UHGV virus genome: UHGV-1507218
Strand: one strand, 5' to 3'
Source: a virus
Length of the DNA stretch: 35,190 nucleotides
Part shown: positions 1-35,190 of the stretch, in pieces
Layout: each line of letters starts with the position of its first letter
Position numbering within the stretch: the first letter of the stretch is position 1
Notes under the pieces: model-generated
Told to the model about the DNA's origin: nothing
What the model saw: only the letters and a program-made list of their open reading frames with translations
Databases searched by the model: none
Position numbers and translations under genes: made by a program

Positions 1-22
1 AAAAACCACCCGGAGGTGGTTT
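1..22 (-). terminator. Rho-independent terminator downstream of the tRNA fragment (host side)
   Basis: Minus-strand hairpin AAACCACCTCCGGGTGGTTT followed by TTTTT. Confidence 0.6.
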
Positions 23-64
23 CACGACACTGCTTATTGCTTTGATTATTCTACTTTATCCCAA

Positions 65-119
65 TGGTACCCGGAGTGGGACTTGAACCCACACAGCGCG
101 AACGCCGAGGGATTTTAAA
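65..119 (-). tRNA. leuZ: Partial tRNA: 3' 55 nt of tRNA-Leu(UAA) (leuZ-like); core of attR
   Basis: Reverse complement reads TTTAAAATCCCTCGGCGTTCGCGCTGTGTGGGTTCAAGTCCCACTCCGGGTACCA. This is the anticodon loop (UAA), long variable arm, T-arm and acceptor 3' strand with CCA. No matching 5' acceptor strand or D-arm lies upstream, so it is a fragment and not a gene. Confidence 0.6.
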
Positions 120-259
120 TTGGTTGTGAAATATATGAGTATCAATCAAATACAATTTTATTCCGAACATAGAATACTATTTGTAGCATTTAACAATCAG
201 ATAGTTACGCCATTCACAGCTACCATCTTCTGACAGAAAAACAGCCACATAAGCAAAAA

Positions 260-499
260 TTATTCAGTCGCGCGGTACCAGGACTGCCAGCGGTAAATGT
301 TGGTGCGCAGCTCCTGCCCGCACTCCGCCGTCTGGGTATCCGCCTGCAAATCCGCATCGCTATCAGAACCTGCATTACTCAGTTTGCATGGCGGGTTCAT
401 CAAATCCGGGGATATTGTTGGCCGCGTCGATAGCTCGCTGGCGCAGCTGCACAGCAGCAGGATCAAACTGGCACTTAGTATGATTCGGGTCGTTGACAT
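260..499 (-). CDS. Rz1-like o-spanin (outer-membrane lipoprotein) overlapping Rz in another frame
   Basis: Signal peptide with LLLCSC lipobox, proline-rich mature part, ORF largely embedded in the Rz frame. Confidence 0.6.
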   Translation of the reverse strand: MSTTRIILSASLILLLCSCASELSTRPTISPDLMNPPCKLSNAGSDSDADLQADTQTAECGQELRTNIYRWQSWYRATE

Positions 500-752
500 A
501 TTTCACCACATCACGATAAACGGTACGGTAGATCACTTTGGCTTCAGCACTCGCTGTCGCCGCCTTATGCTCTCCAGCTACTACAGCCTTTTCCTGCCTC
601 TTTTCCCGCGTCTTCGCCAGGCTATTAACGTGCTCTGAATGCGCGTACCAGCCTTTCAAATATCCCGCCCAGAAAATACCAGCGACCAGCGCCAGCGATA
701 TCCCCGCAATAAGTAATTTCGCGTTGCCATTCATTCGTAAAGCCCCCAGCAC
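375..752 (-). CDS. Rz-like i-spanin (N-terminal TM, periplasmic coiled coil); start may be the internal Met at 734
   Basis: N-terminal TM LLIAGISLALVAGIFWAGYL, charged helical remainder, position directly after the endolysin, Rz1 embedded. Confidence 0.6.
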   Translation of the reverse strand: MLGALRMNGNAKLLIAGISLALVAGIFWAGYLKGWYAHSEHVNSLAKTREKRQEKAVVAGEHKAATASAEAKVIYRTVYRDVVKYVNDPNHTKCQFDPAAVQLRQRAIDAANNIPGFDEPAMQTE

Positions 753-1267
753 GTCAGCGCACTTTCCTGATCGCGGCGGTCAACCTGCCCGTAACAGCCG
801 TTGGCCTGCCCTTTCGTTAACCGGCAATCTCGGCCCCCGTCGAATATCCAGCGCCGGATCTCCGCGCATGCCCCTTTGCGGTCGCCGGCATTCAGCTTGC
901 GATAAAACGTTGAAGGGAAACACTTACCCGGCCCAATGTTGTACGGGCAAAAGCTGGCAATGCCGACTTTCTGCGGCTCAGTTAGCGGAACGTGAACATT
1001 CTTTTGTACCCATGCCAGCGCCTTATCGCGTTCGATCGCGTTGTAATGGTCACACTGGTGTTGCGTTAACTTCATTCCTTTCACTACCGGGCGGCCATCG
1101 ATGCGTGTTACCCCCCGGCATATTGACCAAACCCCACCGGGATCGATAACCGCCGTTAGCGTGTTACCCTCGCGTTCACCAATAAACTGATCGAACAGTA
1201 CCGGCGCTGACGCACCGGCGGCCAGGAGTGCCAGCATGGCGGCGCTGAACTTAGCTTTGTTGCTCAT
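731..1267 (-). CDS. SAR endolysin (phage lysozyme, P21 R-like)
   Basis: N-terminal Gly/Ala-rich weakly hydrophobic SAR helix [19 protein letters not shown]; [22 protein letters not shown] matches the E-D/C-T catalytic signature of P21-type lysozymes. Start placed at MSNKAKF. Confidence 0.75.
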
Positions 1268-1481
1268 ATTCTCGCGCCTTCCGCCGGTCGTCTTTGATTT
1301 TGAAATACAGATTGGTGAGGTAGGTAAGCAATCCAAATACAATACTGGCCAGAACGCCGATTGCGGCCCATTGGCTGGGACTTACCTTATCGAGAAGTTG
1401 CAGCAGCCAGTAGCTGCCGCTTAGTGTGGATGTGATATACGACGTTCCCGCCGCTACATCCGGCAAATTCTTCATTCGCAT
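1251..1481 (-). CDS. Class II holin / pinholin (S21-like) with a dual-start motif M-R-M-K
   Basis: [52 protein letters not shown] is close to the P21 S21 pinholin. Two TMs and a charged C-terminus. Confidence 0.75.
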
Positions 1482-1537
1482 GCCTTACCCCCACGGGGAT
1501 CACTGTGTGTAGTGGTGTGAGGGTAAGGTGTTAAACA

Positions 1538-1552
1538 GGTCGGAATCCCGAC
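1538..1552 (-). repeat. Late-operon hairpin motif copy 1 (GTCGGGATTCCGACC), 57 nt upstream of the holin
   Basis: Exact 15-mer shared with copies 2 and 4. Confidence 0.7.
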
Positions 1553-1564
1553 TATCTAATTCAA

Positions 1565-1789
1565 TTACTGCTGCATGGTGCTGATATAACTTTCATAATC
1601 AGCCATCGTTATGGCTTTTCTGTTATCCATAAGAACAAGCATCCAAAGCTGGGATAGATCCATGTCGGATAAATTTGTTACCGCTAATTCTGCTACCTCT
1701 TCAGTTTCGTAACACCCCTCCTTCCACTGACCGTTTTCACGTACAACGTAACCATTCTCAGATTTTACAATTTCCATAACTATCCTCAT
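1565..1789 (-). CDS. Hypothetical small acidic protein downstream of the tailspike (ATGA overlap with the tailspike stop)
   Basis: ORF with start/stop overlap coupling; no recognisable family. Confidence 0.4.
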   Translation of the reverse strand: MRIVMEIVKSENGYVVRENGQWKEGCYETEEVAELAVTNLSDMDLSQLWMLVLMDNRKAITMADYESYISTMQQ

Positions 1790-4161
1790 GCAGACACTAC
1801 AGGTGCCCAGTTGATTGTTGCGCTATCTTTACTCAGATATACAACACCATCTCCGGAATTAATTTTCCCAATTCGTTCTGATATCGCGCCGGCAGGCCAT
1901 TGATAATGCGCCGGATAATTCCAGCTATTCACTACATCGGCTTTTACACCACGGGTTATAAATGCTCTGTTTTCAGAAAAGCCAAAGACACCGATATTAA
2001 TATCGTAAAATTCGAAAGCAGCTTGCGAACTCAGCGCGACCGTGCCAATCCTCCCGCCTTTAAATACCGCCCTCGACCCAAAAGCACCGTTCACTGTTGA
2101 TAAGGTGCATTCGTTAAAAGTCACAGGGGCATATAAAGCCCCAATGGATGTTGCTGAACCTGAACCCGCCGGAGCGCGTAAATCCCCTACCGGATTAGTT
2201 ACCGTGACGTTATTAAAAGTAATATTTCCACGATAGTTATTATTAAACAGCAATGTGCCTATTACGCCACCATTGACCTGAACGCCAAGAGCATTTGCGC
2301 GCGGTCTGAACGTCGCCACATCCGGGTTATTAACGATAATTCCAGATCCTACCTGCAACGTGCCTGTTGCCCTCGGGGATTCCAGCGTAATTTTAGACGC
2401 AGGTTCTGCGATAATGATATCCCCGGCAACCAGGCCGCCGTATGTAGTCGAACGCCCAAAGTCACAGGAGACCACCGCACCCGGCGCAGCAATTGTTTTG
2501 ACGTCGGAAAAATCCATCGTCATCACTACTGAGGGTACTGTCGAAACCGTCGGTGTTCCGTCTGGTGCAGTTGCTTTCGGTGATGCATCAATGACAGCTT
2601 GACCAATAACAGTGTTGCCAAGGTTAAAACGACAAGTAATATAATTTAAACCGGCGATCGTAGTGTCACCCGCCTCTGTAGTAGTGATATAAGTTCTTTC
2701 ACAGTGAATGTTATGAATAACATCCCTGATACCAGATGCATAAATCGCTTTGTCGTATGACTGTTCTACCTGCATAGACACAACATGGTTTGTATTATCG
2801 GTGTCACCGCCTCCCGTAGAATAATAGGCATAGTCAGATGCATTACCGCAAAGTTCAGTCTGCAAGCGCAGGAAGGTAGAATCCCATATTGCTTCCCTGT
2901 GAATACCTATTCCATTAAAACCACTGGCACGAATATGACCAATATTAAGCCACTGCCCTTTTAAATAAACACCGTGCAGCGCTGCATCACGGTTGAGCGC
3001 ATCAACATAAAGACTGCCGATAACTACGACGCGATTAGCTCTGCCCTCTCTATAAGGTAAATCTGGATTACCTATAGTGATTGCGTAATCGCCATTAAAG
3101 CCAACCGGGTTTACTTTAAAAATCCCTGATGTATCGCTGATAATTCTGGAAACCTTCGTTAAATCGAGGGTTGAGGAAATTGTCCAGTAGCTGCCCCGGA
3201 AATCTACGGTCTTACCTTCCGAAGCTGCAGCGTAACGCAGTATGGCGTCTGTAGAGTCATCTGTGTTTCCTGGCTTAGCACCAAAATGAACCGGCAGTAA
3301 CTGATCTGTTACTCGTTTCCATCGGGCACCGCCGCCGGTGACAATAACACTTCCGCCATCGTCGATACTTTCCTCGTCCAGATGGTCATACTCAAAATAT
3401 CCACCGCCACAACCGAAGCCGGGTGAGTATTCAATTACATCAATTTTCTGCTGTATCTTCGTCGGTTCAATACTGCGAAGAGCCTCAACAGATGGACAGC
3501 GACCGATATATTTTAAACCGTCGGCGCTTTGCAAATTAAGCGCCGTTTGCCAGTCAATGCTACCCGGGAACACAGGCAAGCTATCACCTGTTGCCGCATC
3601 ATACGCCTGCACTTTACCTTTACGCAGATGTGCCGGCGGAAGCTGGGTTAGCTCCTCATTTTTTGGTACCCGAAGCGTCCTTGTGAGACTTAAAGAATTT
3701 TGCTCCTGATACCATTTTTTTGTAACTGCATCCTGCGGGTCTACCGGGTCGCCAAGATTAGCAATACGGTAACCTTTTGCATTGAACGGCCCGCCAAAAA
3801 TCGGGCGGGTCAGTGCGAAACTAAGATCGATAAAAGCTCTCTGGATAGCCATCCAGATACGGTCAAAATCCTTGTTAACGGTATCCGCCAGCAGATCGCC
3901 GTTGTCCTGGTAATCAGTGAGTCGGTACGTTGGCACTACACGTTCAAGCATGACGACGGCACCGTTTGCCGGTGGCGTCAGAAAGGTAATATCGCCGCCG
4001 TCCTTATTGCCTACACCTGCAACGGTGTACCCACTGGTAACAACGTCTCCGTTTATGCTCACCTGCAGGTCGCTGGCGCTGATGATATAAAACTCATACG
4101 TGAAAACAGTCGTAAGACCATTCGCAGTATAAATGTTATAGGGGGTCTGGTTAGGTACCGA
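1786..4161 (-). CDS. Tailspike / tail fibre: T7 gp17-like N-terminal adaptor fused to a beta-helix polysaccharide-depolymerase-like body
   Basis: N-terminus (GYRIANLGDPVDPQDAVTKKW) resembles the T7 gp17 N-terminal tail-attachment domain. The rest is Gly/Asn/Thr-rich repeats typical of a right-handed beta-helix. Start placed at MSVPNQ (GGAG 9 nt upstream). Confidence 0.65.
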   Translation of the reverse strand, partial: SVPNQTPYNIYTANGLTTVFTYEFYIISASDLQVSINGDVVTSGYTVAGVGNKDGGDITFLTPPANGAVVMLERVVPTYRLTDYQDNGDLLADTVNKDFDRIWMAIQRAFIDLSFALTRPIFGGPFNAKGYRIANLGDPVDPQDAVTKKWYQEQNSLSLTRTLRVPKNEELTQLPPAHLRKGKVQAYDAATGDSLPVFPGSIDWQTALNLQSADGLKYIGRCPSVEALRSIEPTKIQQKIDVIEYSPGFGCGGGYFEYDHLDEESIDDGGSVIVTGGGARWKRVTDQLLPVHFGAKPGNTDDSTDAILRYAAASEGKTVDFRGSYWTISSTLDLTKVSRIISDTSGIFKVNPVGFNGDYAITIGNPDLPYREGRANRVVVIGSLYVDALNRDAALHGVYLKGQWLNIGHIRASGFNGIGIHREAIWDSTFLRLQTELCGNASDYAYYSTGGGDTDNTNHVVSMQVEQSYDKAIYASGIRDVIHNIHCERTYITTTEAGDTTIAGLNYITCRFNLGNTVIGQAVIDASPKATAPDGTPTVSTVPSVVMTMDFSDVKTIAAPGAVVSCDFGRSTTYGGLVAGDIIIAEPASKITLESPRATGTLQVGSGIIVNNPDVATFRPRANALGVQVNGGVIGTLLFNNNYRGNITFNNVTVTNPVGDLRAPAGSGSATSIGALYAPVTFNECTLSTVNGAFGSRAVFKGGRIGTVALSSQAAFEFYDINIGVFGFSENRAFITRGVKADVVNSWNYPAHYQWPAGAISERIGKINSGDGVVYLSKDSATINWAPVVSA

Positions 4162-4181
4162 CATAAGGGAAGCTCCGGCGG

Positions 4182-5792
4182 CTAGTAATCTACAGCGACC
4201 GAAATGTCGCCATCGTATGGCTGCCAATGCTCCCTCGCCTGCGCGGTCGGAATCCCGACTAATTTCCCAATACGCACAGGCGTAGCGCTGATCGCGCCGG
4301 ATCCCGAATCGATAAAGTCGTCTGGTTGGTTAGTTAACGCCGGGTTAAAGTCGCGCATCTGGTCATACATCGGGCCATCGAGCACGTCGGTATGTGCCCA
4401 CAGGAACCGGGACGACAGCGGCGCTTCGAATGCATCGAGGATGCGTTTTTGTTTGTTGGTGACGCTGAATTCTTCCCGTACGCCGCAGCCGGTACCCTTC
4501 AGTGCCTGAATAAGCAACTTCCCGGCAAAACTACCGGGGCCGTTTACTTCTACGCAGACCAACGGGATCTGATACTTCAGCACCAGCTCTTTAATCTGCA
4601 TCACCTGACCGCCGGTGATTTTGTCGTTGTCGCCAAATTCTGCCAGCTCGCCAGTTAATCCCTGGCAAACATGCCAGTAAAGATGCCCGCGGGCGTCGGT
4701 GAAAATAAGGGAAAATGCCGAAGCATCAGCCTTAACTTTGCCGGTGGCCACATCCCACCAGGCGACAGCACCGACGATTTGCGTCTGGCCAAGCCACATC
4801 GAGCAGGAACGGTTCGCATAGCGAATTTCAGGCTGGACGTTGTACTCGCGGATACGGTCGGGATCGAGACGAACCTCGCCAACCGGTTTACTATGCAGCT
4901 GATACTGGCTATCCCATTCGTTGATTGTACGGGTCTCACGACGGCGCTTTGTCATTTCCTCCGGGGTGAACCTTTCCGGCCATTCACAATCGGCGTAACA
5001 GTCAACGGTAGTACCCGGAGCTTCGGCAAACTCGATACCATCATCAGTGAGTCGATAATCAACATCTTCAACGAGCAGACGCGCACCAATATGAATACCC
5101 ACGAAAACATATTCCGGCCTGAACGGTAACGAATAACGGCTCGCAGTAGCCTGTTTTTCCTCGATACGAAATTCTTTACCGAATAGTTTAATGGTCAGAC
5201 AATCAGCGCCCATAGATTCAACCTCATCGTAAAGGCTATCGTGGGTATGCGGTGTACCGATAAAGAGCTTTCGCCCACCGGGTACAAGAATGTGTGTCTG
5301 CTCACCTAGCCGATAACGCAGTTTTTCCCGCGCCTCCGGCGTCTGGATATTGCGGGGCACTTCTACGTCATCGTTCTGACATTCATCAGCGCGGGCCGAT
5401 GTAACGTTAGAGAGGATCCCCTTTGCGTACATGCTGCCGTTACGCATATCCAGAGAGCCGTTAACCCACCACTGCTCAACGGTGCCCTGTCCATCCGGCA
5501 GCATGCCTTTGGTCAGTGGGTGGTTGCGTAATACGTTCTGCGTATCACGGCTAGTTTTGTACGCTGTGCCATCGGCCTCAGACTGGTGAAGGATGCGATA
5601 CTGGCGGTTCTGGTAATATCGCCATGCGTTATATACCGCCAGAATGGTGGATTTACCGAAGCCACGGAAACAGCGAAGCACCGCGAGATCTCCGCGATGC
5701 TCCAGCCAGTGGCAGGCTCGGTAATGGCAGTCGGGAACCTCCCACCCCATCCTCTCCGCCCATATTATGAAAAAGGCGACGAATGAAATCAT
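4182..5792 (-). CDS. Terminase large subunit (T7 gp19-like)
   Basis: Walker A LRCFRGFGKST and FIGTPHTHDSLYDEVE parallel T7 gp19 LQAFRGIGKS and YLGTPQTEMTLYKELE. ATGA overlap with the upstream small gene. Confidence 0.8.
   Translation of the reverse strand: MISFVAFFIIWAERMGWEVPDCHYRACHWLEHRGDLAVLRCFRGFGKSTILAVYNAWRYYQNRQYRILHQSEADGTAYKTSRDTQNVLRNHPLTKGMLPDGQGTVEQWWVNGSLDMRNGSMYAKGILSNVTSARADECQNDDVEVPRNIQTPEAREKLRYRLGEQTHILVPGGRKLFIGTPHTHDSLYDEVESMGADCLTIKLFGKEFRIEEKQATASRYSLPFRPEYVFVGIHIGARLLVEDVDYRLTDDGIEFAEAPGTTVDCYADCEWPERFTPEEMTKRRRETRTINEWDSQYQLHSKPVGEVRLDPDRIREYNVQPEIRYANRSCSMWLGQTQIVGAVAWWDVATGKVKADASAFSLIFTDARGHLYWHVCQGLTGELAEFGDNDKITGGQVMQIKELVLKYQIPLVCVEVNGPGSFAGKLLIQALKGTGCGVREEFSVTNKQKRILDAFEAPLSSRFLWAHTDVLDGPMYDQMRDFNPALTNQPDDFIDSGSGAISATPVRIGKLVGIPTAQAREHWQPYDGDISVAVDY
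4245..4259 (-). repeat. Late-operon hairpin motif copy 2, inside the TerL 3' end, 85 nt upstream of the tailspike start
   Basis: 20-nt identity with copy 4 (GTCGGGATTCCGACCGCGCA). Confidence 0.7.
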
Positions 5793-6133
5793 TTTTTCCG
5801 CTGTTGTATGCGTTCGATAACCTCTTGTGCTGCACGTTCAGCCGCAGAGACCTGTTGCCCCAGTCGGAACGCTTCATCGTCCGGATCTTCTCCTCCGGTT
5901 TTCGGCGTACCGCCGCGAGTATGCATGCCAATAAGTGAATGGACTTTTACCAGCAGGGTTAGCGAGGCGGCTGCATTCTTCTTATGCCAGTACCGATCGC
6001 CGCGTTCCTGTTTGGTGTGCTTTGTGATTTCCTTCCCTGCCCCCGGCCAGTTGTCCGGATCGGCTTCTTCCAGAACTACATCTGTGAGCTTATCGCTAAG
6101 AGCAGTAAGGCGAGTTTTGTAATCTGAATGCAT
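5789..6133 (-). CDS. Putative terminase small subunit (translationally coupled to TerL)
   Basis: Position immediately upstream of TerL with ATGA overlap; small charged protein. No direct motif. Confidence 0.4.
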   Translation of the reverse strand: MHSDYKTRLTALSDKLTDVVLEEADPDNWPGAGKEITKHTKQERGDRYWHKKNAAASLTLLVKVHSLIGMHTRGGTPKTGGEDPDDEAFRLGQQVSAAERAAQEVIERIQQRKK

Positions 6134-6180
6134 AAAAAAGCCCCGTGGTTATCCATAGGGCTATGATGTGCTGGGCTAGA

Positions 6181-6195
6181 GGTCGGAATCCTGAC
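6181..6195 (-). repeat. Late-operon hairpin motif copy 3 (variant GTCAGGATTCCGACC), upstream of TerS
   Basis: One mismatch; followed by a hairpin plus T-run immediately before the ATG. Confidence 0.6.
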
Positions 6196-6421: not shown

Positions 6422-6736
6422 TTAAGTTCTTGGGTGCTTAATATCGAAAATATCTCGATAGGATTGTGCATAGGATTTTTTAAATTTCGAATAGCATTCC
6501 AAATCTAATGCGCGAATAGTTTTAGTTACTTTATCATGACACATCAAGCAGAAGACTAACCCTCCACCAAACACTATTCCCATAATAACAGGGTTTGCTA
6601 CTCCCCATATTAAACTAGCTAGCAATCCTAAAAATCCAAAACCACCAATACACGCGCCTAAACCACGATTAGTTTTAGCGTTTTGATAACTACGCTCCAA
6701 TGCCTCAAGCGCTCTAATATCCATATGTTCACCCAT
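6422..6736 (-). CDS. Small inner-membrane protein (2 predicted TMs) in an AT-rich moron
   Basis: Two hydrophobic helices (GLGACIGGFGFLGLLASLIWGV; PVIMGIVFGGGLVFCLMC), charged termini, low GC. Confidence 0.45.
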   Translation of the reverse strand: MGEHMDIRALEALERSYQNAKTNRGLGACIGGFGFLGLLASLIWGVANPVIMGIVFGGGLVFCLMCHDKVTKTIRALDLECYSKFKKSYAQSYRDIFDIKHPRT

Positions 6737-6737
6737 T

Positions 6738-12346: not shown

Positions 12347-12351
12347 GTTTA

Positions 12352-22555: not shown

Positions 22556-22579
22556 AACTCCTAAACCCCCCAATAACTA

Positions 22580-22714: not shown

Positions 22715-22741
22715 CCTCCACGGTTCTGGTATGGTTGAACG

Positions 22742-23080: not shown

Positions 23081-23092
23081 TGAATCCCCCGT

Positions 23093-23937: not shown

Positions 23938-23939
23938 GA

Positions 23940-24906: not shown

Positions 24907-24909
24907 GCC

Positions 24910-25578: not shown

Positions 25579-25616
25579 TGGTCTTTCCTCGGTTATATCG
25601 CGCTGGTCAGGCGCGG

Positions 25617-27994: not shown

Positions 27995-27996
27995 CG

Positions 27997-28218: not shown

Positions 28219-28238
28219 TGGTCTTTCCTCGGTACAGG

Positions 28239-28685
28239 TTAAACGCTGGTCAGGCGCTGTGTTTCTCGCATCGCTTGCAATGCCTTCGCTACTTGCTGCG
28301 GGCCGTCTCTGGCCTCGAGCAATAACGCGATAATGGCCGCCGCAAATTCGCGTATGGCCACGCAGATCAAATACTGGGTGGACATGTCCAGGCGCGCGTA
28401 GCGTTCTGCCGGCAGTGCCGCTTCCATCGCTTTAGCCAGCGTCTGGGTTTTAGTTCTGGCCGCTTTCGTCTCACCACGCAGCCAGCGAAAAATCTGTTGG
28501 CGGTTGTTGTTGATGGCCCGCCAGTCTGCATTTCCGTCTGCATCTTCAATCTGGTGCAGCTTCAGCACGCCAGTGTTACCACAGAGACGAAACCACATAC
28601 GGCTTATCTCGATAGCAACCAGCTCCTGCCCGCTTTCAGCTGCCCAGCTAAATATCTCTCGTTTCAGTTCCTCGAGGTTCTCCAC
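28239..28685 (-). CDS. ydaT: YdaT-like protein (Rac prophage toxin-like / CII-like regulator family)
   Basis: QQIFRWLRGETK matches the YdaT signature RWLKGET; position after the cro-like gene as in Rac. Confidence 0.55.
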   Translation of the reverse strand: MENLEELKREIFSWAAESGQELVAIEISRMWFRLCGNTGVLKLHQIEDADGNADWRAINNNRQQIFRWLRGETKAARTKTQTLAKAMEAALPAERYARLDMSTQYLICVAIREFAAAIIALLLEARDGPQQVAKALQAMRETQRLTSV

Positions 28686-28745
28686 TTCGCGTCTCCTGTC
28701 GCTGAAAATTGATTAAGCGTAATCAGATTTAGATCACGCGGATTG

Positions 28746-28979
28746 TTAAGCTGCATCCTGTTCTGGTAACCCATCAGTGGGTTTCCGGTAAATGTTTGGG
28801 AGCAAATCGTGCGGGGTGACTTGGTATCCAGTTGCTGCAGCCCACTTCAACGCAGTTGCAGCACCGAGCAAACATTTACCAGTCGAGACGCGGCTTACAT
28901 AACCCTGAGACTCGCCGACAAGTTGAGCAAAGTCCTGTTGCCGTACGCCCGAGGTTTTTAGATAGGTTTTGAGATCCAT
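28746..28979 (-). CDS. Cro/YdaS-like XRE-family HTH regulator
   Basis: QQDFAQLVGESQGYVSRV HTH, divergent from the repressor, AGGAGG RBS. Confidence 0.7.
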   Translation of the reverse strand: MDLKTYLKTSGVRQQDFAQLVGESQGYVSRVSTGKCLLGAATALKWAAATGYQVTPHDLLPNIYRKPTDGLPEQDAA

Positions 28980-29079
28980 TTAGCCTCCTGAATGTTTATG
29001 TGACACATGAATATTAGTATTGCGAATACAAAAGTGTCAATAGTTACACGATTGGGAGGAAATTAATTTTACGAATATT
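28980..29079. promoter_or_regulatory. Divergent repressor/cro control region with three palindromic operator candidates
   Basis: ATGTGACACAT (28997-29007), GTATTGCGAATAC (29017-29029), GTGTCAATAGTTACAC (29033-29048). Confidence 0.5.
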
Positions 29080-29544
29080 ATGTGCGCCATGAGAAAGAAA
29101 ACGCTTGATGCAGCTGAGGCTGACGCAGCACAAAGGCTGCGAGAAATATGGAACGAGAAAAAAGTAACTTTACGTCTTACTCAAGAAAAGGCGGCGGATG
29201 CTCTCGGCTTTAGTACACAAGCGACAATAAGCCAGTACCTAAACGGCAGCATCCCACTAAATACGGATGCAACACTTAAATTTTCAGCCCTTCTTGGTGT
29301 TAAGCCAGAAGATATACGGCCGGATCTTGCCGAACTGATGAACTTCATTCGTAAAACCGACAGCCACGTTCAAGATTATTCCGCTGCTGGTTGGCGTTTA
29401 CTAAAACCAGAAGAGTCGGAGCTAATAGAACTTTATGAAAGATTACCGCAAAGTGAAAAAGAAAGGCATCTATCTGAATTAAAAGAGAAAGTAAGTGGAT
29501 TTGATCGCCTTTTTGAAGAACTTTTAGCGACCCGTAAGCAGTAA
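29080..29544 (+). CDS. racR: Prophage repressor, RacR-like (HTH only, no S24 peptidase domain)
   Basis: N-terminal XRE HTH LTQEKAADALGFSTQATISQYLNG similar to lambda cI / P22 C2 DNA-binding domains; only 154 aa, with no Ala-Gly cleavage site and no Ser/Lys peptidase domain. Confidence 0.65.
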   Translation: MCAMRKKTLDAAEADAAQRLREIWNEKKVTLRLTQEKAADALGFSTQATISQYLNGSIPLNTDATLKFSALLGVKPEDIRPDLAELMNFIRKTDSHVQDYSAAGWRLLKPEESELIELYERLPQSEKERHLSELKEKVSGFDRLFEELLATRKQ

Positions 29545-29560
29545 ACCCTACCTCCCAACT

Positions 29561-29586
29561 AATCCCGCATAGCCGGGATTTTTTTA
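29561..29586 (+). terminator. Rho-independent terminator after the repressor gene
   Basis: ATCCCG catagc CGGGAT followed by TTTTTTT. Confidence 0.6.
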
Positions 29587-29639
29587 TCCTTTTTAATCAA
29601 CACCATACAAAAAATATTCGCAATACGATTATTTTTGGC

Positions 29640-29668
29640 TTGACCTTAAATATACGCATAACTAATAT
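29640..29668 (+). promoter_or_regulatory. Early-left sigma70 promoter TTGACC-17-TAATAT
   Basis: Near-consensus hexamers with a 17-nt spacer. Confidence 0.6.
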
Positions 29669-29818
29669 CACCAACATCAACGACGCACTAACCACGCGGC
29701 AGTTGTTCAGAAACAGTTCTGACAGTCCGGAAAGACGGGCAAGAATTCTTCGGGTCGCCGACAGTACGATGACATGCGGGAAAGACCGCAACGAATGCGA
29801 ATTGCTGTGTGTAGTCTT

Positions 29819-29846
29819 GGCCCCGGCGCCCGGGGCATTTTTTTCA
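29819..29846 (+). terminator. Rho-independent terminator / attenuator inside the early-left leader
   Basis: GCCCCGG cgc CCGGGGC followed by ATTTTTTT. Confidence 0.6.
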
Positions 29847-29885
29847 CATAGTAGCGATTTATGCGACCCTTCAGTGAAAACTGAA

Positions 29886-29903
29886 GCCCTCGAAAAGAGG
29901 GGC
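29886..29903 (+). promoter_or_regulatory. boxB-like RNA hairpin (5-bp stem, GAAAA pentaloop)
   Basis: CCCTC GAAAA GAGGG compared with lambda boxB GCCCU GAAAA AGGGC. Confidence 0.35.
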
Positions 29904-30109
29904 CCCGTGAGGAAAGACCGTAGAGCCTGACCAGCTCTGACACCGGGAAAGACCGGGAGGAAAGACCAACGGGATTGACCACCCTGACAGCCGGGAAAGA
30001 CCGGCAACCTTTAGATAGCAAAAGGCCCGCACAAGGCGGGCCAGTTACCCCGAACGGTGACCAAACCATTCGGATTTTTGCCGGGAACCACCCCGGCTAG
30101 GAAAGACCA

Positions 30110-30133
30110 ATGCAGGCCAGAGCCACACACTGA
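30110..30133 (+). CDS. 7-codon upstream ORF (MQARATH) on the conserved RBS motif
   Basis: TAGGAAAGACCAATG then six codons and TGA, 34 nt upstream of the first early-left gene. Confidence 0.3.
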   Translation: MQARATH

Positions 30134-30166
30134 TCGGCTCTGAGTATACAACACTAAGGAGCCGCT

Positions 30167-30490
30167 ATGGAAGCGCTTACCATCCCCGTAACTATCTACG
30201 TTATGGCAACAACCAATCCATATCTACCAACGTCTTATCACTCATTCACCTGTGACATGTCACAGAAATATCCTGATTCGTACGTGCTTGTTACTACCAA
30301 AACGGTAGAGATTGCCATTCCTGCTTTAGAGCCTATCGATATTATCGGGATGCAGGTTAATGCCCTTCGCGCGAAGAAAGAGCAAATATCTGCTGATGCC
30401 AACAAACAGTTAAGCGTTATTGAAGACCAGATCCAGCAGCTGCTGTGCATCGACCACTCTCCGATTGAAGAAAGCGACGTCCCTTTTTGA
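30167..30490 (+). CDS. Hypothetical protein, first gene of the early-left operon
   Basis: AAGGAG RBS, 107 aa, no family assignment. Confidence 0.45.
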   Translation: MEALTIPVTIYVMATTNPYLPTSYHSFTCDMSQKYPDSYVLVTTKTVEIAIPALEPIDIIGMQVNALRAKKEQISADANKQLSVIEDQIQQLLCIDHSPIEESDVPF

Positions 30491-30497
30491 GGTTCCT

Positions 30498-30743
30498 ATG
30501 ACAAATAACTCATTCATCGAAAAAATAATCGATGCTGGCTTATCAGTAATTGAGCACGAAAATAATAGCGACTTTGGTTCAGGGACTATGCATATCACCA
30601 TCATCGGCGGTGTTCGTCGTGTCGAGTTCTACCCTACTACTGGCACCGTTTACGCCAATGCTGAAAAGGGAAAATTTCCGGCGTTCAAGCAGAAAAAAGC
30701 CGGGATTAAAGTTGCTATCCGTTTAGCCAAATCCGGCGCGTGA
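30498..30743 (+). CDS. Hypothetical protein (81 aa)
   Basis: GAGG RBS before ATG at 30498; the longer frame in the ORF track overlaps the previous gene. Confidence 0.4.
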   Translation: MTNNSFIEKIIDAGLSVIEHENNSDFGSGTMHITIIGGVRRVEFYPTTGTVYANAEKGKFPAFKQKKAGIKVAIRLAKSGA

Positions 30744-30773
30744 CCTGCGCCTGCAACCAAGAGGAAAGACCAA

Positions 30774-32917
30774 TGACCATCTACAACGGCTTATTCGAGC
30801 CAAAAAAATCGGCTATCAAAGACTGCGGCGCCGTGCAGCTGGCGATCGCCGTCGAAGCACCAAACAAGAAAATCGCCGAAAGCATTATCACCGGCAAACT
30901 CTGGGAATCTTACCCGGCGAACGGTGACAACTATTTTAAACCGAAGCTATGGGAACACGAAGAAGGCCAGCCGCTGCCGACCGTTGGCCAGTTCGACGAG
31001 CTATTCGCCCAGCAACATACTTTCGACGGTGAAAAATGGGTTTCCATTGCCGCGAACGGCACCGCCGGTGAGGAATCAAATTTACCCGCTGACGATGATG
31101 TTATCGATCTGATGACTGTTTCCCCAGGCGAACGCTTTGCAGCCGTTCTGCTGTTTAGCACCGCTCAGATTGATGGCCATATCTATTCTCAGGTTGTGGA
31201 TTATCTGGATAACCTGAATAACCGTGATACCGAACTGGAAGAAGAAGATCGTTTTAACCTTAACGTTCTGTGTGCTCTGCACAATAACGAACCAGTCAAG
31301 CACATGCATGTTGAAGGTCTGAATAATCTTATTCAGGGGATTTTCTACCATTTTGAAAACCAGACTCCGGGCAAAGCGGCTATTTCTCAATTTGTAAAAC
31401 GCTGGCTTGAGAATCCCGGTAAACGTGAAGAAATGGTACCAGGCCAAAATTCCTCACTCGGCGCCGCCAGCACTGATACCAACGTAAAAATCGCGCCAAA
31501 ACGTGGTTATAAACATACCTATGCAACACTGGATCAGGAGATCGCTGTCGCCCTACTCCCTATTTCTCCCGACGCGCCAGTATTATCAGGCAACCTTCGC
31601 GATGCTGAGAAAATCATTGCAGACGAGCGCGAAGATTTTAAACGTTGGTCAATGGCGCTTCGCACCACGGAGCACATTCTCAAATATGACCGAGACAGTA
31701 TTTTTGGCGTAGTGCAGAACGTACCGGCAAAAGATACCTACCATTTCCCTGACAGCCTACGCCGCCACATTGATTCATGGCTCGAAGCAAATGGCCGCTT
31801 TGAAGAAACAGAGACAGGATCCGTTAAACAACCAGAGGCAACGCAAAATACCGCCTCAAACGTGGTCGAAAAAGCGGAAGTACCACAGCCGGTGGTAACC
31901 GATACCCAGGCCAAACAGGCGCGTGAGACGCTCAACGATATGGGCTATGGCGTATATGCCTCTGGTGATGCAGAACAGCCAGTAGAGAAGTTAAGCACTA
32001 AAGCGGAAACAATAGCTGATAACGCCGAGGTGCTGGCAAAGCAAATTATTCATGCTGAAAGACTGCCTGACGCTGAAGAAGTAATGAAGTCTGCCGGCGC
32101 GCAGAGTATCGGACAGGATAATTTAGAACTGTGGAAACGTGTATTCAAAACTGATGAACGGTTTACTAAAGCCTTTACGCAGAACGGCGGCGGTACCTCG
32201 ATCAACGGTACCTATTTAACCATGCTTGCCACTCGCGAGTTTGGGCCAAAGGGAATCGGCTGGGGTGTGGACATCCTCGAGGAACGTTTCGATATCGGCG
32301 CCCCCATTACACGCCAGGTGAAAGGGAAAGATAACAATGCGTCATGGGAGTTAGTGCTCGACGGGAATGGAAATACCGTCAACGAGCAGCATCACGTCGT
32401 TACCGTGCGACTCTGGTACATCCTGAATGGTGTGCGCGGCGAGGAAACGGCCTACGGTTGCACGCCATACATTTACGGCAGTAAGTACGGTATTACCTGC
32501 GATGGTGAGGCAACAAAAAAATCGCTGACTGATGCAACCAAAAAGGCTTTATCTGGCCTCGGCTTCAGTGGCGATATCTTCATGGGCCTTTACGACAATC
32601 TGGAATACCGCCAGAAAAACAAGGCAGAGTTTGATCTGAAGAATGCCAGCGAAACCGCAGAGGACGCTGCACGTCTTCGCCAGGAGTTTGACGACAAACT
32701 TAGCCGTGTTGCTAACACCCTGGCACATGGCGTGACAGTGAACGAAATAAACGGCGTGTTCTCCCCTATCGCACGTGAAATCGATGTTCACATTAAGGCC
32801 GCACAGGCCAACGGTGACGCACAACATGAACGCTATCTGTCTGGCCGCTTGCGCCGACTCATAACGATTAAAGACGGACGCATCAAAGAACTGAATAAAG
32901 CCGAGGAGAAAGCATAA
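30774..32917 (+). CDS. Large fusion protein with a C-terminal Rad52/Sak-family single-strand annealing domain
   Basis: The C-terminal region (YLTMLATREFGPKGIGWGVDI; VTVRLWYILNGVRGEETAYGCT; ATKKALSGLGFSGDIFMG) matches the Rad52 N-terminal-domain motifs ([56 protein letters not shown]). Start at MTIYNG on the GAGGAAAGACCAATG RBS. Confidence 0.6.
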
Positions 32918-33483
32918 TGACTTCCACAACTGCAATTGCTATCGCTGCTGATATGTCTAAACTCCAGGCGCTTCTGGAAAACGAAGACGGTTCTGGTCTG
33001 TCAGCTGAAATGATCGCCGATACAATGGAGGGGCTCGAGCTGCAGCTCGGCGACAAACTGGACGCGGTATTCGTCCACGTTCGCAACCTTGAAGGCCTAG
33101 CGAAAACCTGCGACGAAGAAGCCAAACGCCTGGCCGCCCGTAAAAAGTCTTTCGAAGGTAAGATCACCAACCTGAAGAAATATGTTCTCCAGTGCCTTCT
33201 GGCCGCCGGACAGGATACCGTAAAAACGGCAAAAAACACCTTCACCGCCCGTAAAGGTGCAATCAACGTGGTGATCGATAACGTTGATTTACTCCCGGAT
33301 GAATTGGTGACCGTTCAGACAGTAGTTGCGCCTGACAAAAAGGCAATCAAAGAGGCTATCGAGTCAGCAGAAGCGGCCGCAGCTCAGATTACCGCAGATG
33401 GTGGGGAAGTCCCGGAAGAACTCTTAAACCCGGTTCCGGGCGCCCATATTGAAATCGGCGAACGTTCACTGCAGGTACGCTGA
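32917..33483 (+). CDS. Mu Gam-like host-nuclease inhibitor family protein
   Basis: KKYVLQCLLAAGQDTVKTAKNTFTARKGAINVVIDNVDLLPDE parallels the Mu Gam core (VQGWCEANRDELTNGGKVKTANLVTGDVSWRVRPPSVSI). Confidence 0.55.
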   Translation: MTSTTAIAIAADMSKLQALLENEDGSGLSAEMIADTMEGLELQLGDKLDAVFVHVRNLEGLAKTCDEEAKRLAARKKSFEGKITNLKKYVLQCLLAAGQDTVKTAKNTFTARKGAINVVIDNVDLLPDELVTVQTVVAPDKKAIKEAIESAEAAAAQITADGGEVPEELLNPVPGAHIEIGERSLQVR

Positions 33484-33484
33484 T

Positions 33485-33670
33485 ATGCTGAGACTATCCC
33501 TGAAGAAAGGTGATGCGGTTCATGTCGTTTTACCAGATGGAACCAACGCAATTATCGAAGCGCGGGCCCGTTGCGAACTCGGCATGCACTTCCCCCGCAA
33601 TATCAAGATAACGCGTGAAGATGGTGCATTCCGACCAAAACAAAACCTGATTAAGCGTAATCAGAAATAA
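33485..33670 (+). CDS. 61-aa protein with CsrA-like sequence pattern (candidate RNA-binding translational regulator)
   Basis: Ungapped alignment to E. coli CsrA (also 61 aa) conserves M1 L2 L4 G9, I/L32 G33, P37 K/R38, V/I40, V/I42 and the R44-E45-E/D46 RNA-binding motif. Confidence 0.45.
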   Translation: MLRLSLKKGDAVHVVLPDGTNAIIEARARCELGMHFPRNIKITREDGAFRPKQNLIKRNQK

Positions 33671-33719
33671 CCCATCACTACCGATAGCATTGTGGTCTAC
33701 CAATAAACCGGAGATCACA

Positions 33720-33944
33720 ATGCTACGTTGGCAACCAGGTGTAGTTTTACTTTCAGAATTCGATATCAAAATTGGCAGGCTATCAGCCAGCGTTAGAAAG
33801 AGGACTCTGACCCAGTCCGATATTCAGCGCGCTTGCGATGCAGCAGACAACGCTATAGCCGGCATGCTGAGGAAAGACCATGAAACACGATCACGACATC
33901 ATCACCAGAGAGGAAATGATCGAACTGACGGGGACGCCGCTTAA
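33720..33944 (+). CDS. Hypothetical small basic protein
   Basis: GGAG RBS before ATG at 33720 (MLRWQPG). Confidence 0.35.
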   Translation: MLRWQPGVVLLSEFDIKIGRLSASVRKRTLTQSDIQRACDAADNAIAGMLRKDHETRSRHHHQRGNDRTDGDAA

Positions 33945-34125
33945 AACTAGGCAGTGCGAAGCGCTACGCCGGGCCGGTGTATTTTTCATTGAAAGGGCAG
34001 ACGGCCATCCTAAAACGACGTGGGGCCATTTCCTGAATCCGATTAAATACCGCAACCAACCAGAAGAGATGGTGCGGGAGGAAGAACCAGACTTCGGAGC
34101 TATATTTAATGGCCGGAAAGCGTAA
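33880..34125 (+). CDS. xis: Excisionase-like small protein (DUF4224-like) overlapping the integrase start
   Basis: IITREEMIELTG... pattern of integrase-adjacent DUF4224 proteins; GAGGAAAGACCATG RBS. Confidence 0.45.
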   Translation: MKHDHDIITREEMIELTGTPLKTRQCEALRRAGVFFIERADGHPKTTWGHFLNPIKYRNQPEEMVREEEPDFGAIFNGRKA

Positions 34126-35125
34126 GAACCCCGCCGATAACTGGATGCCGCCACGCGTATATCGCGGTAAGGCGGCGTATGAATTCCGTACGAAAGACAA
34201 CAAAGGGATCCGCCTGTGTGGGTTAAATGAACCACAATCCGCTGTATGGTTGGCATATGAAAAAGCCATGGGCGAAGAAGTTGAGCGCAAAACGTTTCAG
34301 TCTCTGGCCGAACAATTCATGTCTTCCCCTGACTGGCAGGATTTAGCAGCAGAAACCAGAAAAGACTATACGAAATACGCAGGAAAAGTATTGCCAGTAT
34401 TCGGAAAAGTTAACCCTGATAAAATTAAACCTGAACACATCCGGCGCTATATGGATCAGCGTGGAATTGCCAGTAAAACGCAGGCCAACCGGGAAAAGAG
34501 TTTTCTGTCGCGGGTATTCCGCTGGGGTTACGAGCGGGGTTACGTCCAGCACAATCCCTGCCAGGGCGTTAAGAAGTTCAAAGAGACAGCCCGAGAGCGT
34601 TACATCACCGACGAAGAATACAAAGCGGTTTACGATGTTGCTCCGGACGTAGTGCGCGCCACCATGGAAATAGCTTATTTGTGTCTGGCCAGACAAAGCG
34701 ATGTGCTGGCTTTAACTGAAGACCAGATACGGGAAACCGGGATATTTATCCGCCAGGGGAAAACAGGCGTTAAGCAAATCAAGGCATGGTCGCCACGCCT
34801 CCGCGCTGCCGTCGCCCTCGCCCGTTCCCTGCCGTTAAAGCCGGGTATCCGTAGCCTGTTCGTCATTCACCAGACCAGCGGAAGTAAATACACTCGCGAC
34901 GGTTTTAATTCACGCTGGCGCGAAGCCAAAATTGCAGCACAGGAGAAGTATCCACACCTGCAAATAGATTTCACATTTCACGATCTGAAGGCTAAAGGTG
35001 TCTCTGATCTGGAAGGAAGCCTGGAAGAGAAGCAGGCAATTTCGGGTCATAAGAATTCGAGACAAACGGCGATTTATGACAGGAAAACTAAAATTGTGCC
35101 GGTTGTTGGTGGTCAGAAGAAATGA
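34109..35125 (+). CDS. int: Tyrosine-type phage integrase
   Basis: C-terminal catalytic region FTFHDLKAKG ... SGHKNSRQTAIYDRK (H-x-x-R ... Y); N-terminal arm-binding-like domain; location at the prophage end. Confidence 0.85.
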   Translation: MAGKRKNPADNWMPPRVYRGKAAYEFRTKDNKGIRLCGLNEPQSAVWLAYEKAMGEEVERKTFQSLAEQFMSSPDWQDLAAETRKDYTKYAGKVLPVFGKVNPDKIKPEHIRRYMDQRGIASKTQANREKSFLSRVFRWGYERGYVQHNPCQGVKKFKETARERYITDEEYKAVYDVAPDVVRATMEIAYLCLARQSDVLALTEDQIRETGIFIRQGKTGVKQIKAWSPRLRAAVALARSLPLKPGIRSLFVIHQTSGSKYTRDGFNSRWREAKIAAQEKYPHLQIDFTFHDLKAKGVSDLEGSLEEKQAISGHKNSRQTAIYDRKTKIVPVVGGQKK

Positions 35126-35190
35126 ATCAGTATGCGTTCGTAGAAAAATCATCTTCGGACGCATCTTCGGAAATGACGCTTCAGAAATGG

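Follow-up and report, generated by a model that had tools for sequence, protein, structure and literature searches.

The virus genome UHGV-1507218 (35,190 nucleotides, nt; this whole stretch is called the window, and all coordinates are window positions) is, as read from its sequence, a single coherent integrated temperate podophage of ~35 kb in an enterobacterial tRNA-Leu gene, and five copies of a promoter-like element stand before its late gene blocks. The explanation that best accounts for the whole, and that we consider probable, is that two exchangeable modules are joined in this prophage and that the host sigma70 RNA polymerase, together with a phage protein of 98 amino acids (aa) referred to here as HTH98, runs the five late promoters. 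One module would be a lambdoid early region, and the other the virion, packaging and lysis genes of a polymerase-less clade resembling Yersinia phage YeP4, which would share with T7 the design of its portal, adaptor, nozzle, internal core and terminase.

On reading the late intergenic regions, the sequence GTCGGGATTCCGACC was spotted before the capsid, p114/TerL and lysis genes. A 15-mer search of the window gave three exact copies and one with a single mismatch, with fewer than one copy expected even at three mismatches. The element can be written as aaaTaG-TCGGGAwwCCGA-cc, followed 14 nt later by nAnn[A/C]T, and the following sites were located:

20935..20966, minus strand: P1, core TCGGGAAACTGA at 20966-20955 and hexamer CACAAT at 20940-20935; overlaps the HTH98 stop codon, before the block of the 147 aa protein, portal and scaffold
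16958..16989, minus strand: P2, core TCGGGATTCCGA at 16989-16978 and hexamer AACAAT at 16963-16958; before the capsid gene, directly after a terminator hairpin at 17022-17000
6163..6194, minus strand: P3, core TCAGGATTCCGA at 6194-6183 and hexamer CATCAT at 6168-6163; before p114/TerL
4227..4258, minus strand: P4, core at 4258-4247 and hexamer GAGCAT at 4232-4227; inside the 3′ end of TerL, before the tailspike, with a YeP4 equivalent at 34940
1520..1551, minus strand: P5, core TCGGGATTCCGA at 1551-1540 and hexamer TACCCT at 1525-1520; before the holin, with an equivalent copy before the YeP4 holin

The 12-nt core was then searched, as the pattern TC[AG]GGA[AT][AT]C[CT]GA, in 1.98 Mb comprising the window and related loci. 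This search returned 151 copies on the late-gene strand and none on the opposite strand, against ~2 per strand expected by chance, and a degenerate pattern containing one position too many gave only noise, with 14 matches per strand and no downstream signal. In the 61 divergent copies, defined by flanks differing at more than 20 of 85 positions, position +27 was always A and position +31 always T (61/61 each), position +30 was either A or C (61/61), and the upstream flank followed the consensus a-a-a-T-a/g-G. At this fixed spacing nAnn[A/C]T would correspond to a sigma70-type -10 element with its A-11 and T-7. No -35 hexamer fits in the element, and a dyad, GGTCGG-N4-CCGACC, is centred near -32.5. 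The start sites predicted in this way give 5′ untranslated regions of ~23-150 nt with ribosome-binding sites.

The arrangement is maintained well beyond the window. YeP4 carries five copies at equivalent places despite its unrelated early module, at least four copies occupy equivalent places in a related Escherichia coli prophage, and relatives from Pseudomonas and Burkholderiales whose portals are 49-60% identical still carry it; the P2-type element in particular is kept upstream of capsid genes in Enterobacterales, Pseudomonas and Burkholderiales loci. In the T7 genome, searched as a control, the only matches were scattered over both strands and had 1-2 mismatches. What can be read directly is that these promoter-like elements exist, where they lie, that they favour one strand and that they are conserved; from this we infer that they are promoters used by the host polymerase. 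The motif strings retrieved only unrelated primer sequences from the literature searched; this late promoter class and its regulon are apparently undescribed.

The candidate activator of these promoters is encoded at the joint between early and late genes:

20933..21229, minus strand: HTH98, a 98 aa XRE-fold protein

HTH98 is kept beside the virion module in 99 loci, down to ~35% identity, and no other conserved protein of this module was found to have a predicted DNA-binding function. Its database homologues are all unnamed and have no Pfam domain, and a profile search at E≤1e-3 retrieved 1,288 clusters, most of them with proteins 75-130 aa long. An AF2 model (pLDDT 75.6 overall, 86-91 over residues 11-70) places helices at residues 11-20, 25-32, 36-43 and 50-64, and its top Foldseek matches were CapH, operator-bound P22 c2, C-proteins (C.BclI) and SinR, with TM scores (target) of 0.55-0.7. 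According to this model, HTH98 has a lambda-repressor-like helix-turn-helix (HTH) fold.

The position of the element is tied to the HTH98 gene. In loci with an HTH98 homologue, 139 of 140 promoter cores lie at or after that gene, the lone core before it being the YeP4 lysis promoter, an artefact of the circular record start. Counted from the HTH98 stop codon, 79 of 99 loci have a promoter in the interval from -80 to +1000 nt. Of 67 loci, 27 have the first promoter touching or overlapping the stop codon and 27 more have it 211-971 nt downstream; the idea that it always abuts the stop codon was rejected on these counts, and what holds throughout is that the array begins after HTH98. Both half-sites of the dyad often change together in other lineages (GGGCAG-GAAT-CTGCCC, ATCGG-GAAA-CCGAT and GACGG-GATT-CCGTC), and lineages with such symmetric changes show altered residues in the HTH98 recognition helix. 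From this set of sequence data we infer that the early programme closes with the HTH98 gene and that its product activates the late promoters.

The joint at which HTH98 lies is also the place where modules have been exchanged. A gene-by-locus table revealed virion proteins 97-99% identical to those of the window joined either to a lambdoid early region or to an early region of the YeP4/BPP-1 type (DNA polymerase A, primase). Homology to a relative of the latter type (L033, 94% nucleotide identity) begins at window position 20745, inside the 147 aa gene. From the other side, the 'Stenotrophomonas' phages vB_SmeS_BUCT708/709 (OM816834/5) share 86% nucleotide identity over window 21396-33884, and this homology ends at 21396, their virion module being different (portal 27% identical); the early module is exchangeable, because in these phages it accompanies a different virion module. 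The 650 bp joint between 20745 and 21396 holds HTH98 and the first late promoter. The portal of BUCT708/709 is of the PF12236 type although the names of these phages mark siphoviruses, and their host or morphology assignment may deserve a check.

Exchange is also seen within the late region. In comparison with the related E. coli prophage (L003), three variable cassettes were found, at 1554-3713, 6199-6738 and 17001-17521, which contain respectively the receptor-binding C-terminus of the tailspike with a 74 aa open reading frame (ORF), the p104 region, and p148, of the N4-gp49/Sf6-gp66 family. The two sequences become homologous again at 1553, 6198 and 17000, adjoining P5, P3 and P2, which suggests that the conserved promoters may act as recombination linkers or boundaries for the cassettes.

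We propose the following sequence of events. On induction, probably through a small antirepressor under LexA control, host RNA polymerase would transcribe the rightward early operon, whose last gene, at the module joint, would encode HTH98. A dimer of HTH98 would bind the dyad GGTCGG-N4-CCGACC, centred ~32 bp upstream of the start site, at the five late promoters, and would recruit the host sigma70 polymerase to these sites, which would have a minimal -10 element nAnn[A/C]T and lack a -35 hexamer. The blocks served would be portal-scaffold, capsid-tail-core, terminase, tailspike and lysis, and the tail and core genes, lying beyond the terminator that follows the capsid gene, would be transcribed less strongly. 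The virion module could be attached to any early module that reads into HTH98, because regulator and promoters travel with it.

Several observations weigh against this proposal. The argument for promoters is one of sequence statistics; P1 is degenerate, with three mismatches to the 15-mer; and 24 of 95 loci with an HTH98 homologue have no strict core match. In phage Piluca an HTH98 homologue occurs without this promoter core; if the activator model is right, specificity must therefore have diverged. The fold assignment carries weak Foldseek E-values (0.03-0.1), and Pfam HTH matches, including HTH_3, fell below threshold. The correlation between recognition helix and half-sites comes from few lineages, and it was read from the clean rows only, because the anchor used to locate the helix failed in many Pseudomonas rows.

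In PHROGs the family of HTH98 is labelled 'transcriptional repressor', a further point against its role as activator, and one that would fit a reading in which the element is a promoter recognised by some other factor (a phage sigma-like protein, an unrecognised polymerase or an alternative host sigma), with HTH98 acting as a repressor or being unrelated. The element has no sigma70 -35 hexamer, and several conserved late proteins have no assigned function, the 147 aa and 74 aa proteins and the large internal proteins being candidates. We regard this reading as unlikely. The invariant A and T at the -10 spacing fit recognition by region 2 of the sigma70 family, and the element appears unlike the established consensus sequences of sigma54, sigma28, sigma32 or sigmaE promoters. 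Among the conserved proteins of sigma size (~170 aa or more), none is without an assignment in every lineage; the 147 aa protein could be detected in enterobacterial members and nowhere else; and no RNA polymerase homology was found. As for HTH98, a repressor would need a self-sufficient promoter to act on, which weak -10-only sites are unlikely to be.

The dyad also fits an RNA hairpin, which is likewise a difficulty for the promoter reading. As RNA, the element would form, at the 5′ end of each late gene block, a 6-bp hairpin with a GAUU or GAAA loop, at which one long PR transcript would be processed, stabilised or, in the manner of nut/boxB, antiterminated. The compensatory changes of the dyad in some lineages and the strict strand specificity (151 to 0) would agree with this, as would the location of all genes from cro to Rz on one strand, which makes a single long transcript possible. 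An RNA role, however, would not account for the A and T that stand without exception exactly 15 and 19 nt further downstream (61/61 divergent copies); single-sided changes such as TCAGGATTCCGA break the hairpin yet are common (11/61 copies); and in many lineages P2 follows directly on a terminator-like hairpin, a layout of termination and re-initiation. We give it a small chance. Smaller still, to the point of being very improbable, is the chance that HTH98 is a small terminase or packaging-site protein and the element a site for packaging or recombination (a cassette-exchange linker). HTH98 does match the small terminase HTH family PF10668 weakly (E=0.003, below threshold), and variable cassettes do end at elements, but the position of a small terminase is held by p114, which overlaps the TerL start and whose Piluca equivalent is annotated as such; packaging sites occur once per genome and not five times before gene blocks; and the -10-like signature would be left unexplained.

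Downstream of P2, a further conserved feature was found in the capsid transcript:

16804..16951, minus strand: predicted structured 5′ leader of the capsid mRNA, with the module A hairpin at 16947-16919

This leader has a length of 143-164 nt and contains one or two copies of the hairpin module C(A/G)G-C-[5 bp stem]-GAyAm-C(U/C)G, in which 4 of 8 pairs show fully compensatory substitutions and almost none are broken. A covariance model of module A detected it in the window at E=2e-9, and a second copy lies ~70 nt downstream in many relatives. Copies in relatives include 12768-12796 of locus L013 and 13146-13174 and 13215-13238 of locus L096, and tandem copies occur only upstream of capsid genes. 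The model found nothing elsewhere in 637 kb, T7, Piluca or the Acinetobacter loci. No Rfam family was found in the window at the gathering score, nor in the capsid leader at E≤1.

Taken together, these elements suggest a broader proposal, which we hold tentatively and rate at somewhat below an even chance: the YeP4-like clade would have a self-contained, portable late regulon, consisting of HTH98, promoters with a dyad at ~-32 and a minimal -10 element before the portal, capsid, terminase, tail-fibre and lysis genes, a post-capsid terminator and a capsid leader RNA, which would mirror the class III layout of T7 (phi9/phi10, Tphi, phi17) but be run by host polymerase. If this is true, the T7-like late architecture with multiple promoters would predate the phage RNA polymerase, which would later have replaced activator and host polymerase, and the conserved promoters would double as recombination boundaries for cassette and module exchange. 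The phage itself changes little; the point of interest is late-gene activation in those relatives of T7 that have no polymerase of their own. A regulator and promoter set that travel together would explain how the same virion module works behind two unrelated early regions, and hypotheses on the origin of the polymerase in the T7 family gain in the late regulon something concrete to be tested against. In practical terms, promoter, HTH98 and capsid leader are small portable parts that might serve as orthogonal expression elements, and the five-copy promoter array could be useful in prophage annotation as a flag for the virion module.

As in lambdoid phages, the early half of the window is organised around divergent repressor and Cro genes, with recombination and int genes in the leftward operon and replication genes in the rightward one, and an O-type initiator with a helicase and nin-region genes (phrog_428/9773, PF03796 DnaB, NinB/DUF1367, Ref nuclease) belongs to the same pattern:

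28980..29668, both strands: immunity region, with a PR-like promoter at 29040-29011 (minus), the repressor at 29080-29544 (plus) and a PL-like promoter at 29640-29668 (plus)
29080-29544, plus strand: repressor, HTH_3, 154 aa, with YdaT nearby
28746-28979, minus strand: Cro-like HTH protein, divergent from the repressor
21385..28979, minus strand: rightward early operon, with the Cro-like, YdaT, 73 aa, O-like initiator, DnaB, 222 aa and theta-like 77 aa genes first, and then MT-A70 methylase, 76 aa, HNH, 112 aa regulator, a terminator at 22719-22694, SOS-box ORF, NinB/DUF1367 and Ref nuclease
22599-22580, minus strand: LexA box TACTGTGAATTTATACAGTA, overlapping a promoter-like TTGCGA-17-TATATA
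22364-22573, minus strand: 63-69 aa ORF behind the LexA box, phrog_340, with a weak anti-repressor match (E=0.003)
29779..35125, plus strand: leftward operon, starting with a GGAAAGACC repeat cluster at 29779-30108, a 107 aa and a ~94 aa gene
30740-32917, plus strand: 725 aa RecE-like exonuclease, with a weak RecE-like match (NF007259) and a YdfE_N domain
32917-33483, plus strand: Sipho_Gp157 protein, PHROG label 'Mu Gam-like', followed by a 61 aa ORF
33880-34125, plus strand: Xis (DUF4224)
34109-35125, plus strand: tyrosine integrase

Family scans agree with the Cro-like, YdaT, O-like, DnaB, nin, Int and Xis assignments of a preliminary description of this DNA. To its RacR-like label for the repressor correspond, as far as these scans go, the HTH_3 domain and the neighbouring YdaT gene. 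Of the Rad52/Gam recombination genes named there, no Rad52 was found, the 725 aa protein belonging to an exonuclease family, and Gam survives only as the PHROG label on the Sipho_Gp157 protein. The lambdoid likeness ends at late control: no window protein matches a Q-type antiterminator family, and five late promoter-like sites with lysis genes at the far end are unlike the Q-driven lysis-head-tail order of lambdoid phages with its single late promoter. The 112 aa 'transcriptional regulator' (22742-23080) was considered as a Q-like late factor and rejected, as a terminator follows it directly, it is missing from the related E. coli prophage, and it was found only in some lambdoid-type loci.

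With respect to induction, the LexA box is near consensus (one match in the window, 0.01 expected), and the 63-69 aa ORF behind it is a candidate SOS-controlled antirepressor. No S24 peptidase domain was found in the 154 aa repressor by domain scan. Since a LexA box is thus combined with a repressor that has no recognisable self-cleavage domain, the sequence suggests that SOS induction may proceed via the antirepressor. An operator-palindrome pattern had no match in the immunity region.

The sequence GGAAAGACC occurs in 11 exact copies in the window (0.2 expected), all in gene orientation. Six of them form the cluster at 29779-30108 in the PL leader, where there is no long ORF and where terminator-like hairpins and CTGAC[AC] repeats lie around them. 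The other five (17507-17499, 25588-25580, 28228-28220, 30763-30771 and 33871-33879) are part of an extended ribosome-binding context, gaGGAAAGACCaATG, of separate genes, once with a GTG start; this context is common to several lambdoid-module genes, and loci with at least three copies of GGAAAGACC all have the lambdoid early module.

The late genes occupy the remainder of the minus strand:

17051..20904, minus strand: head-assembly block, with a 147 aa (20461-20904) and a 74 aa (20225-20449) gene first
18599-20221, minus strand: portal, PF12236 (E=5e-119), PDB 8CK0 (E=2e-55), T7 gp8 (E=2e-10)
18366-18599, minus strand: Bbp19-like 77 aa protein of the head-assembly block, within which PF25181/PF13876 are assigned
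17531-18379, minus strand: 282 aa protein in scaffold position, assigned by position only
17051-17497, minus strand: 148 aa protein of the N4-gp49/Sf6-gp66 family, variable
15914..16885, minus strand: major capsid, PF19821 (E=5e-68), likely ATG at 16804 (MSFDT...)
15897-15878, minus strand: intrinsic-terminator-like hairpin with T-run, 17 nt past the capsid stop codon
15291-15854, minus strand: gp11-type adaptor, PDB 8CK1 'Connector Protein' (E=1.5e-11); phrog_376/phrog_394 (adaptor and nozzle)
13295-15352, minus strand: gp12-type tail nozzle, PDB 8CK1 'Tail Nozzle' (E=9e-100), LME-1 orf18 (E=2.5e-11)
12843..13295, minus strand: GNAT acetyltransferase, PF00583, in gp13 position
6422..12840, minus strand: internal virion (ejectosome-type) proteins, phrog_418, phrog_1044 and phrog_342
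12352-12840, minus strand: gp14-like 162 aa protein, PF24072 T7_gp14 at 19.6 bits, below the cutoff of 27
9632-12346, minus strand: 904 aa internal protein in gp15 position, SLT domain PF01464
6738-9632, minus strand: 964 aa internal protein of gp16 class
6422-6736, minus strand: 104 aa ORF
5789..6133, minus strand: p114, 114 aa, overlapping the TerL start; phrog_9277 (unknown function), with a 63% identical homologue in YeP4
4182..5792, minus strand: TerL of T7 gp19 type, PF22530, T7 RNaseH-like domain; best solved relative T7 gp19 4BIJ (E=8e-16)
1786..4227, minus strand: tailspike with a T7 gp17-type N-terminal adaptor domain, PF03906 (E=1.9e-11), phrog_1640
1565..1789, minus strand: 74 aa ORF downstream of the tailspike, no PHROG or Pfam match, in the block 1554-3713 that varies against L003
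1251-1481, minus strand: holin (PHROG)
731-1342 (longest ORF), minus strand: endolysin, PF00959 Phage_lysozyme, true start probably nearer 1267
375-752, minus strand: Rz-like spanin (PHROG)

The late order is thus HTH98, 147 aa, 74 aa, portal, Bbp19-like, scaffold, 148 aa, capsid, adaptor and nozzle, followed by GNAT, gp14-like, SLT 904 aa, 964 aa, 104 aa, p114, TerL, tailspike, 74 aa and lysis genes. The 282 aa protein in scaffold position had no Pfam, NCBIfam or PDB match, and the protease label, which comes from the YeP4 annotation and from phrog_458 (E=3e-10), was set aside for want of support from these three databases. With a capsid profile the one entry reached was the capsid 9EG4 (E=8e-12), T7 gp10 giving no match, and a PDB sequence search with the capsid alone returned nothing. 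By position, and by the small-terminase annotation of its positional equivalent in Piluca, p114 is probably the small terminase. The true start of the tailspike is probably near 4165, downstream of P4, and its C-terminal part is swapped among relatives. Nearly all relatives, Piluca and vB_EcoM_APEC too, keep the GNAT acetyltransferase among their virion genes. Between the P3 hexamer and the p114 ATG lies a hairpin with U-run, AGCCCTATGGATAACCACGGGGCTTTTTT (6134-6162, minus strand), which is kept in the E. coli prophage and in YeP4; speculatively, it could end upstream transcripts while P3 transcripts begin inside it.

The relation of this module to T7 was determined with the fetched T7 genome, the proteins being compared by BLASTP and gp1 by tblastn. 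Significant BLASTP matches were obtained for the portal with gp8 (25% identity, E=9e-12), TerL with gp19 (32% over 196 aa, E=1e-18) and the tailspike N-terminus with gp17 (34% over 85 aa, E=7e-4). No significant pairwise match linked T7 gp9-gp16 to the scaffold, capsid, adaptor, nozzle or gp13-16 equivalents of the window. Gene order and PHROG classes of the capsid-to-core proteins agree with T7, the gp14 Pfam match being below cutoff. No T7-type RNA polymerase was found: tblastn with gp1 gave only noise (E≥3.8) in the window and in 112 related loci, no large ORF had a polymerase match in Pfam, and every ORF of at least 300 aa was assigned to something else. Two apparent candidates were discarded. 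The 725 aa protein is a member of an exonuclease family, and the 76 aa protein (23707-23937, minus strand), which falls in phrog_2044 'RNA polymerase beta subunit', is too small for a polymerase and lies in the variable nin region; this label is probably a propagated mislabel, which matters when RNA polymerase genes are screened by annotation. The window, then, has the homology of portal, terminase and tail-fibre adaptor to gp8, gp19 and gp17 that characterises Autographiviridae, but by the strict definition of that family it falls outside, having no single-subunit RNA polymerase and carrying genes on both strands with a repressor, recombination genes, Xis and Int. From sequence, the virion module belongs to the wider T7 supergroup and is T7-like only at that level.

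These results bear unevenly on the preliminary description, which had portrayed a mosaic temperate phage with lambdoid early genes and a T7-type virion module. The mosaic of lambdoid early genes and podovirus virion module is borne out by the module exchange among related loci, and the prophage nature by the attL in tRNA-Leu and the same architecture in E. coli 23GD11002. The claimed absence of an RNA polymerase gene holds in the window and the 112 loci, the terminator placed after the capsid is present as the hairpin 17 nt past its stop codon, and late expression by host polymerase with a phage factor remains the best reading, with candidate promoters and a candidate factor now found. The T7 structural order stands as collinearity with genes 8-16, but breaks down after gene 16, where a TerS-like gene and TerL precede the tailspike and lysis comes last. 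Of the likenesses proposed to gp8, gp10, gp19 and gp17, those of portal, TerL and tail-fibre N-terminus were recovered and that of the capsid was not; the gp9-, gp11-, gp12- and core-like proteins agree with T7 in position and class but have no significant pairwise similarity; and the core proteins with an SLT domain reduce to SLT in the gp15-position protein, the gp13 position being held by the GNAT acetyltransferase. The description had itself named closest homology to non-T7 podovirus families as what would speak against a T7-like phage lacking its polymerase, and the closest structural homologues are indeed podoviruses outside Autographiviridae.

The integration site is preserved at one end of the window:

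1..121, minus strand: host flank and attL, with the 3′ part of tRNA-Leu (duplicated att core) at 62-121 and a host terminator region at 1-61

Positions 62-121 match a site in nearly all complete E. coli chromosomes and annotated attP sites of other phages. In E. coli 23GD11002, a prophage of the same architecture sits between yecA and the tRNA-Leu-Cys-Gly cluster, with an intact tRNA-Leu just past its integrase, and contigs encoding an identical integrase run on into pgsA and uvrC. A point to be set against a complete prophage is that the window ends 65 nt past the integrase gene, so that attR and completeness are not directly visible. The host probably belongs to the Klebsiella/Raoultella group, because HTH98 proteins identical or 99% identical are recorded from Klebsiella pneumoniae and Raoultella, and because the best match of the portal among representative genomes is Raoultella lignicola.

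Among deposited phages, the nearest by portal and capsid are Yersinia YeP4-6 (82-83%), followed at a distance by Acinetobacter and Alcaligenes phages (46-52%) and vB_EcoM_APEC (41-42%); more distant matches include HTVC010P-type pelagiphages, Vibrio podophages, Liberibacter SC1/SC2, epsilon15/phiV10 and BPP-1-type phages. No member of Autographiviridae is among the portal and capsid matches listed, and the closest structural relatives are YeP4-6, the Acinetobacter and Alcaligenes phages, the HTVC010P type, LME-1 and the phage of PDB 8CK0/8CK1; in those of them that were inspected, no annotated RNA polymerase was found. Portal and nozzle match 8CK0/8CK1 (E=2e-55 and 9e-100) far better than T7 (portal E=2e-10), and the LME-1 entry 9EFK was also matched. 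We take the phage behind 8CK0/8CK1 to be possibly the marine phage Carin-1, unconfirmed; no paper for these two codes was found in the literature searched.

With the YeP4-like group, which is classed as unclassified Caudoviricetes, the window shares the PF12236 portal, the PF19821 capsid, the 8CK1-type adaptor and nozzle, GNAT at gp13, the T7-type TerL and the same gene order, as well as an integrase, a genome of ~35 kb and the lack of an RNA polymerase. The phage is thus a further member of known, poorly studied polymerase-less temperate podoviruses. The preliminary description called such phages rare in enterobacteria, and this is true of E. coli (~4 of 5,426 genomes: one with 80% of the structural half at 91% identity, two with 65% at 80% and one partial), but elsewhere they are widespread: at least 235 IMG/VR contigs contain the portal family, the longer contigs mostly measuring ~31-40 kb, and it is present at 29 loci in representative bacterial genomes, from Raoultella to Pseudomonas, Burkholderia and Acinetobacter.

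In comparison with known regulatory systems, the proposed late switch resembles the activator-dependent, phage-type promoters served by Mu Mor/C, P2 Ogr, T4 MotA/AsiA and lambda CII at PRE, and by the C-proteins. Common to Mor/C, Ogr, MotA/AsiA, CII and the system proposed here are a small protein made late in the early phase, a site that replaces or overlaps the -35 region and promoters with only a -10 element. The sequence of the site, its centre near -32.5 and the protein family differ. Searches showed HTH98 to have no homology to Mor, C, Ogr, MotA or CII (E about 0.5 with lambda CII, not significant); the nearest folds are those of the restriction-modification C-proteins and P22 c2.

As a whole phage, the closest likeness is to YeP4, YeP5 and YeP6 (MK733262-4), with amino acid identities of 82% for the portal, 83% for the capsid and 79% for TerL, the same order from HTH98 to lysis, a genome of ~35 kb, an integrase, no annotated RNA polymerase and, in YeP4, five promoter elements at equivalent positions. 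They carry a different early module, belonging to the BPP-1/BcepC6B/APSE type, with DNA polymerase A, primase, helicase and an S24-size repressor; their HTH98 homologue shows 51% identity, and at four of the five YeP4 promoters the centre reads GAAA and not GATT. For YeP4-6, temperate podoviruses of Yersinia enterocolitica, induction by mitomycin C and images of podovirus particles have been published (PMC6548840).

The joining of lambdoid-type early genes to this virion type is already known from isolated phages. Piluca (MZ326864) combines a lambdoid-type repressor/Cro, Bet/Exo, a DnaB-like protein, RusA and integrase, and vB_EcoM_APEC (MT664721) a replication protein O and DnaB helicase, with the same type of virion and no annotated RNA polymerase. 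Their portals are 42-46% and their capsids 41-47% identical to those of the window; they differ in having neither the TCGGGAwwCCGA promoter core nor the capsid-leader RNA, and the HTH98 homologue is 40% identical in Piluca, with none detectable in vB_EcoM_APEC. A temperate phage of Legionella, LME-1, has a T7-like virion and the T7 structural order with little or no T7 sequence similarity (PMC12407071). Portal, nozzle, adaptor and capsid of the window match LME-1 (PDB 9EFK, 9EG4) and the 8CK0/8CK1 phage far above T7, and LME-1 is nevertheless distant (portal E=1e-17, nozzle E=2.5e-11), with another host and other early genes.

With T7 itself, the window has in common several phage-specific promoters before late blocks and a terminator after the capsid (in T7 phi9, phi10, Tphi, phi13 and phi17), but its promoters carry a host-type -10 signature, and its capsid, scaffold and core proteins are not detectably similar. 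The temperate T7-like phages described so far (Boeckman et al. 2022, Virology 568:86; LUZ100, PMC10134795) keep their RNA polymerase, under MarR-type control.

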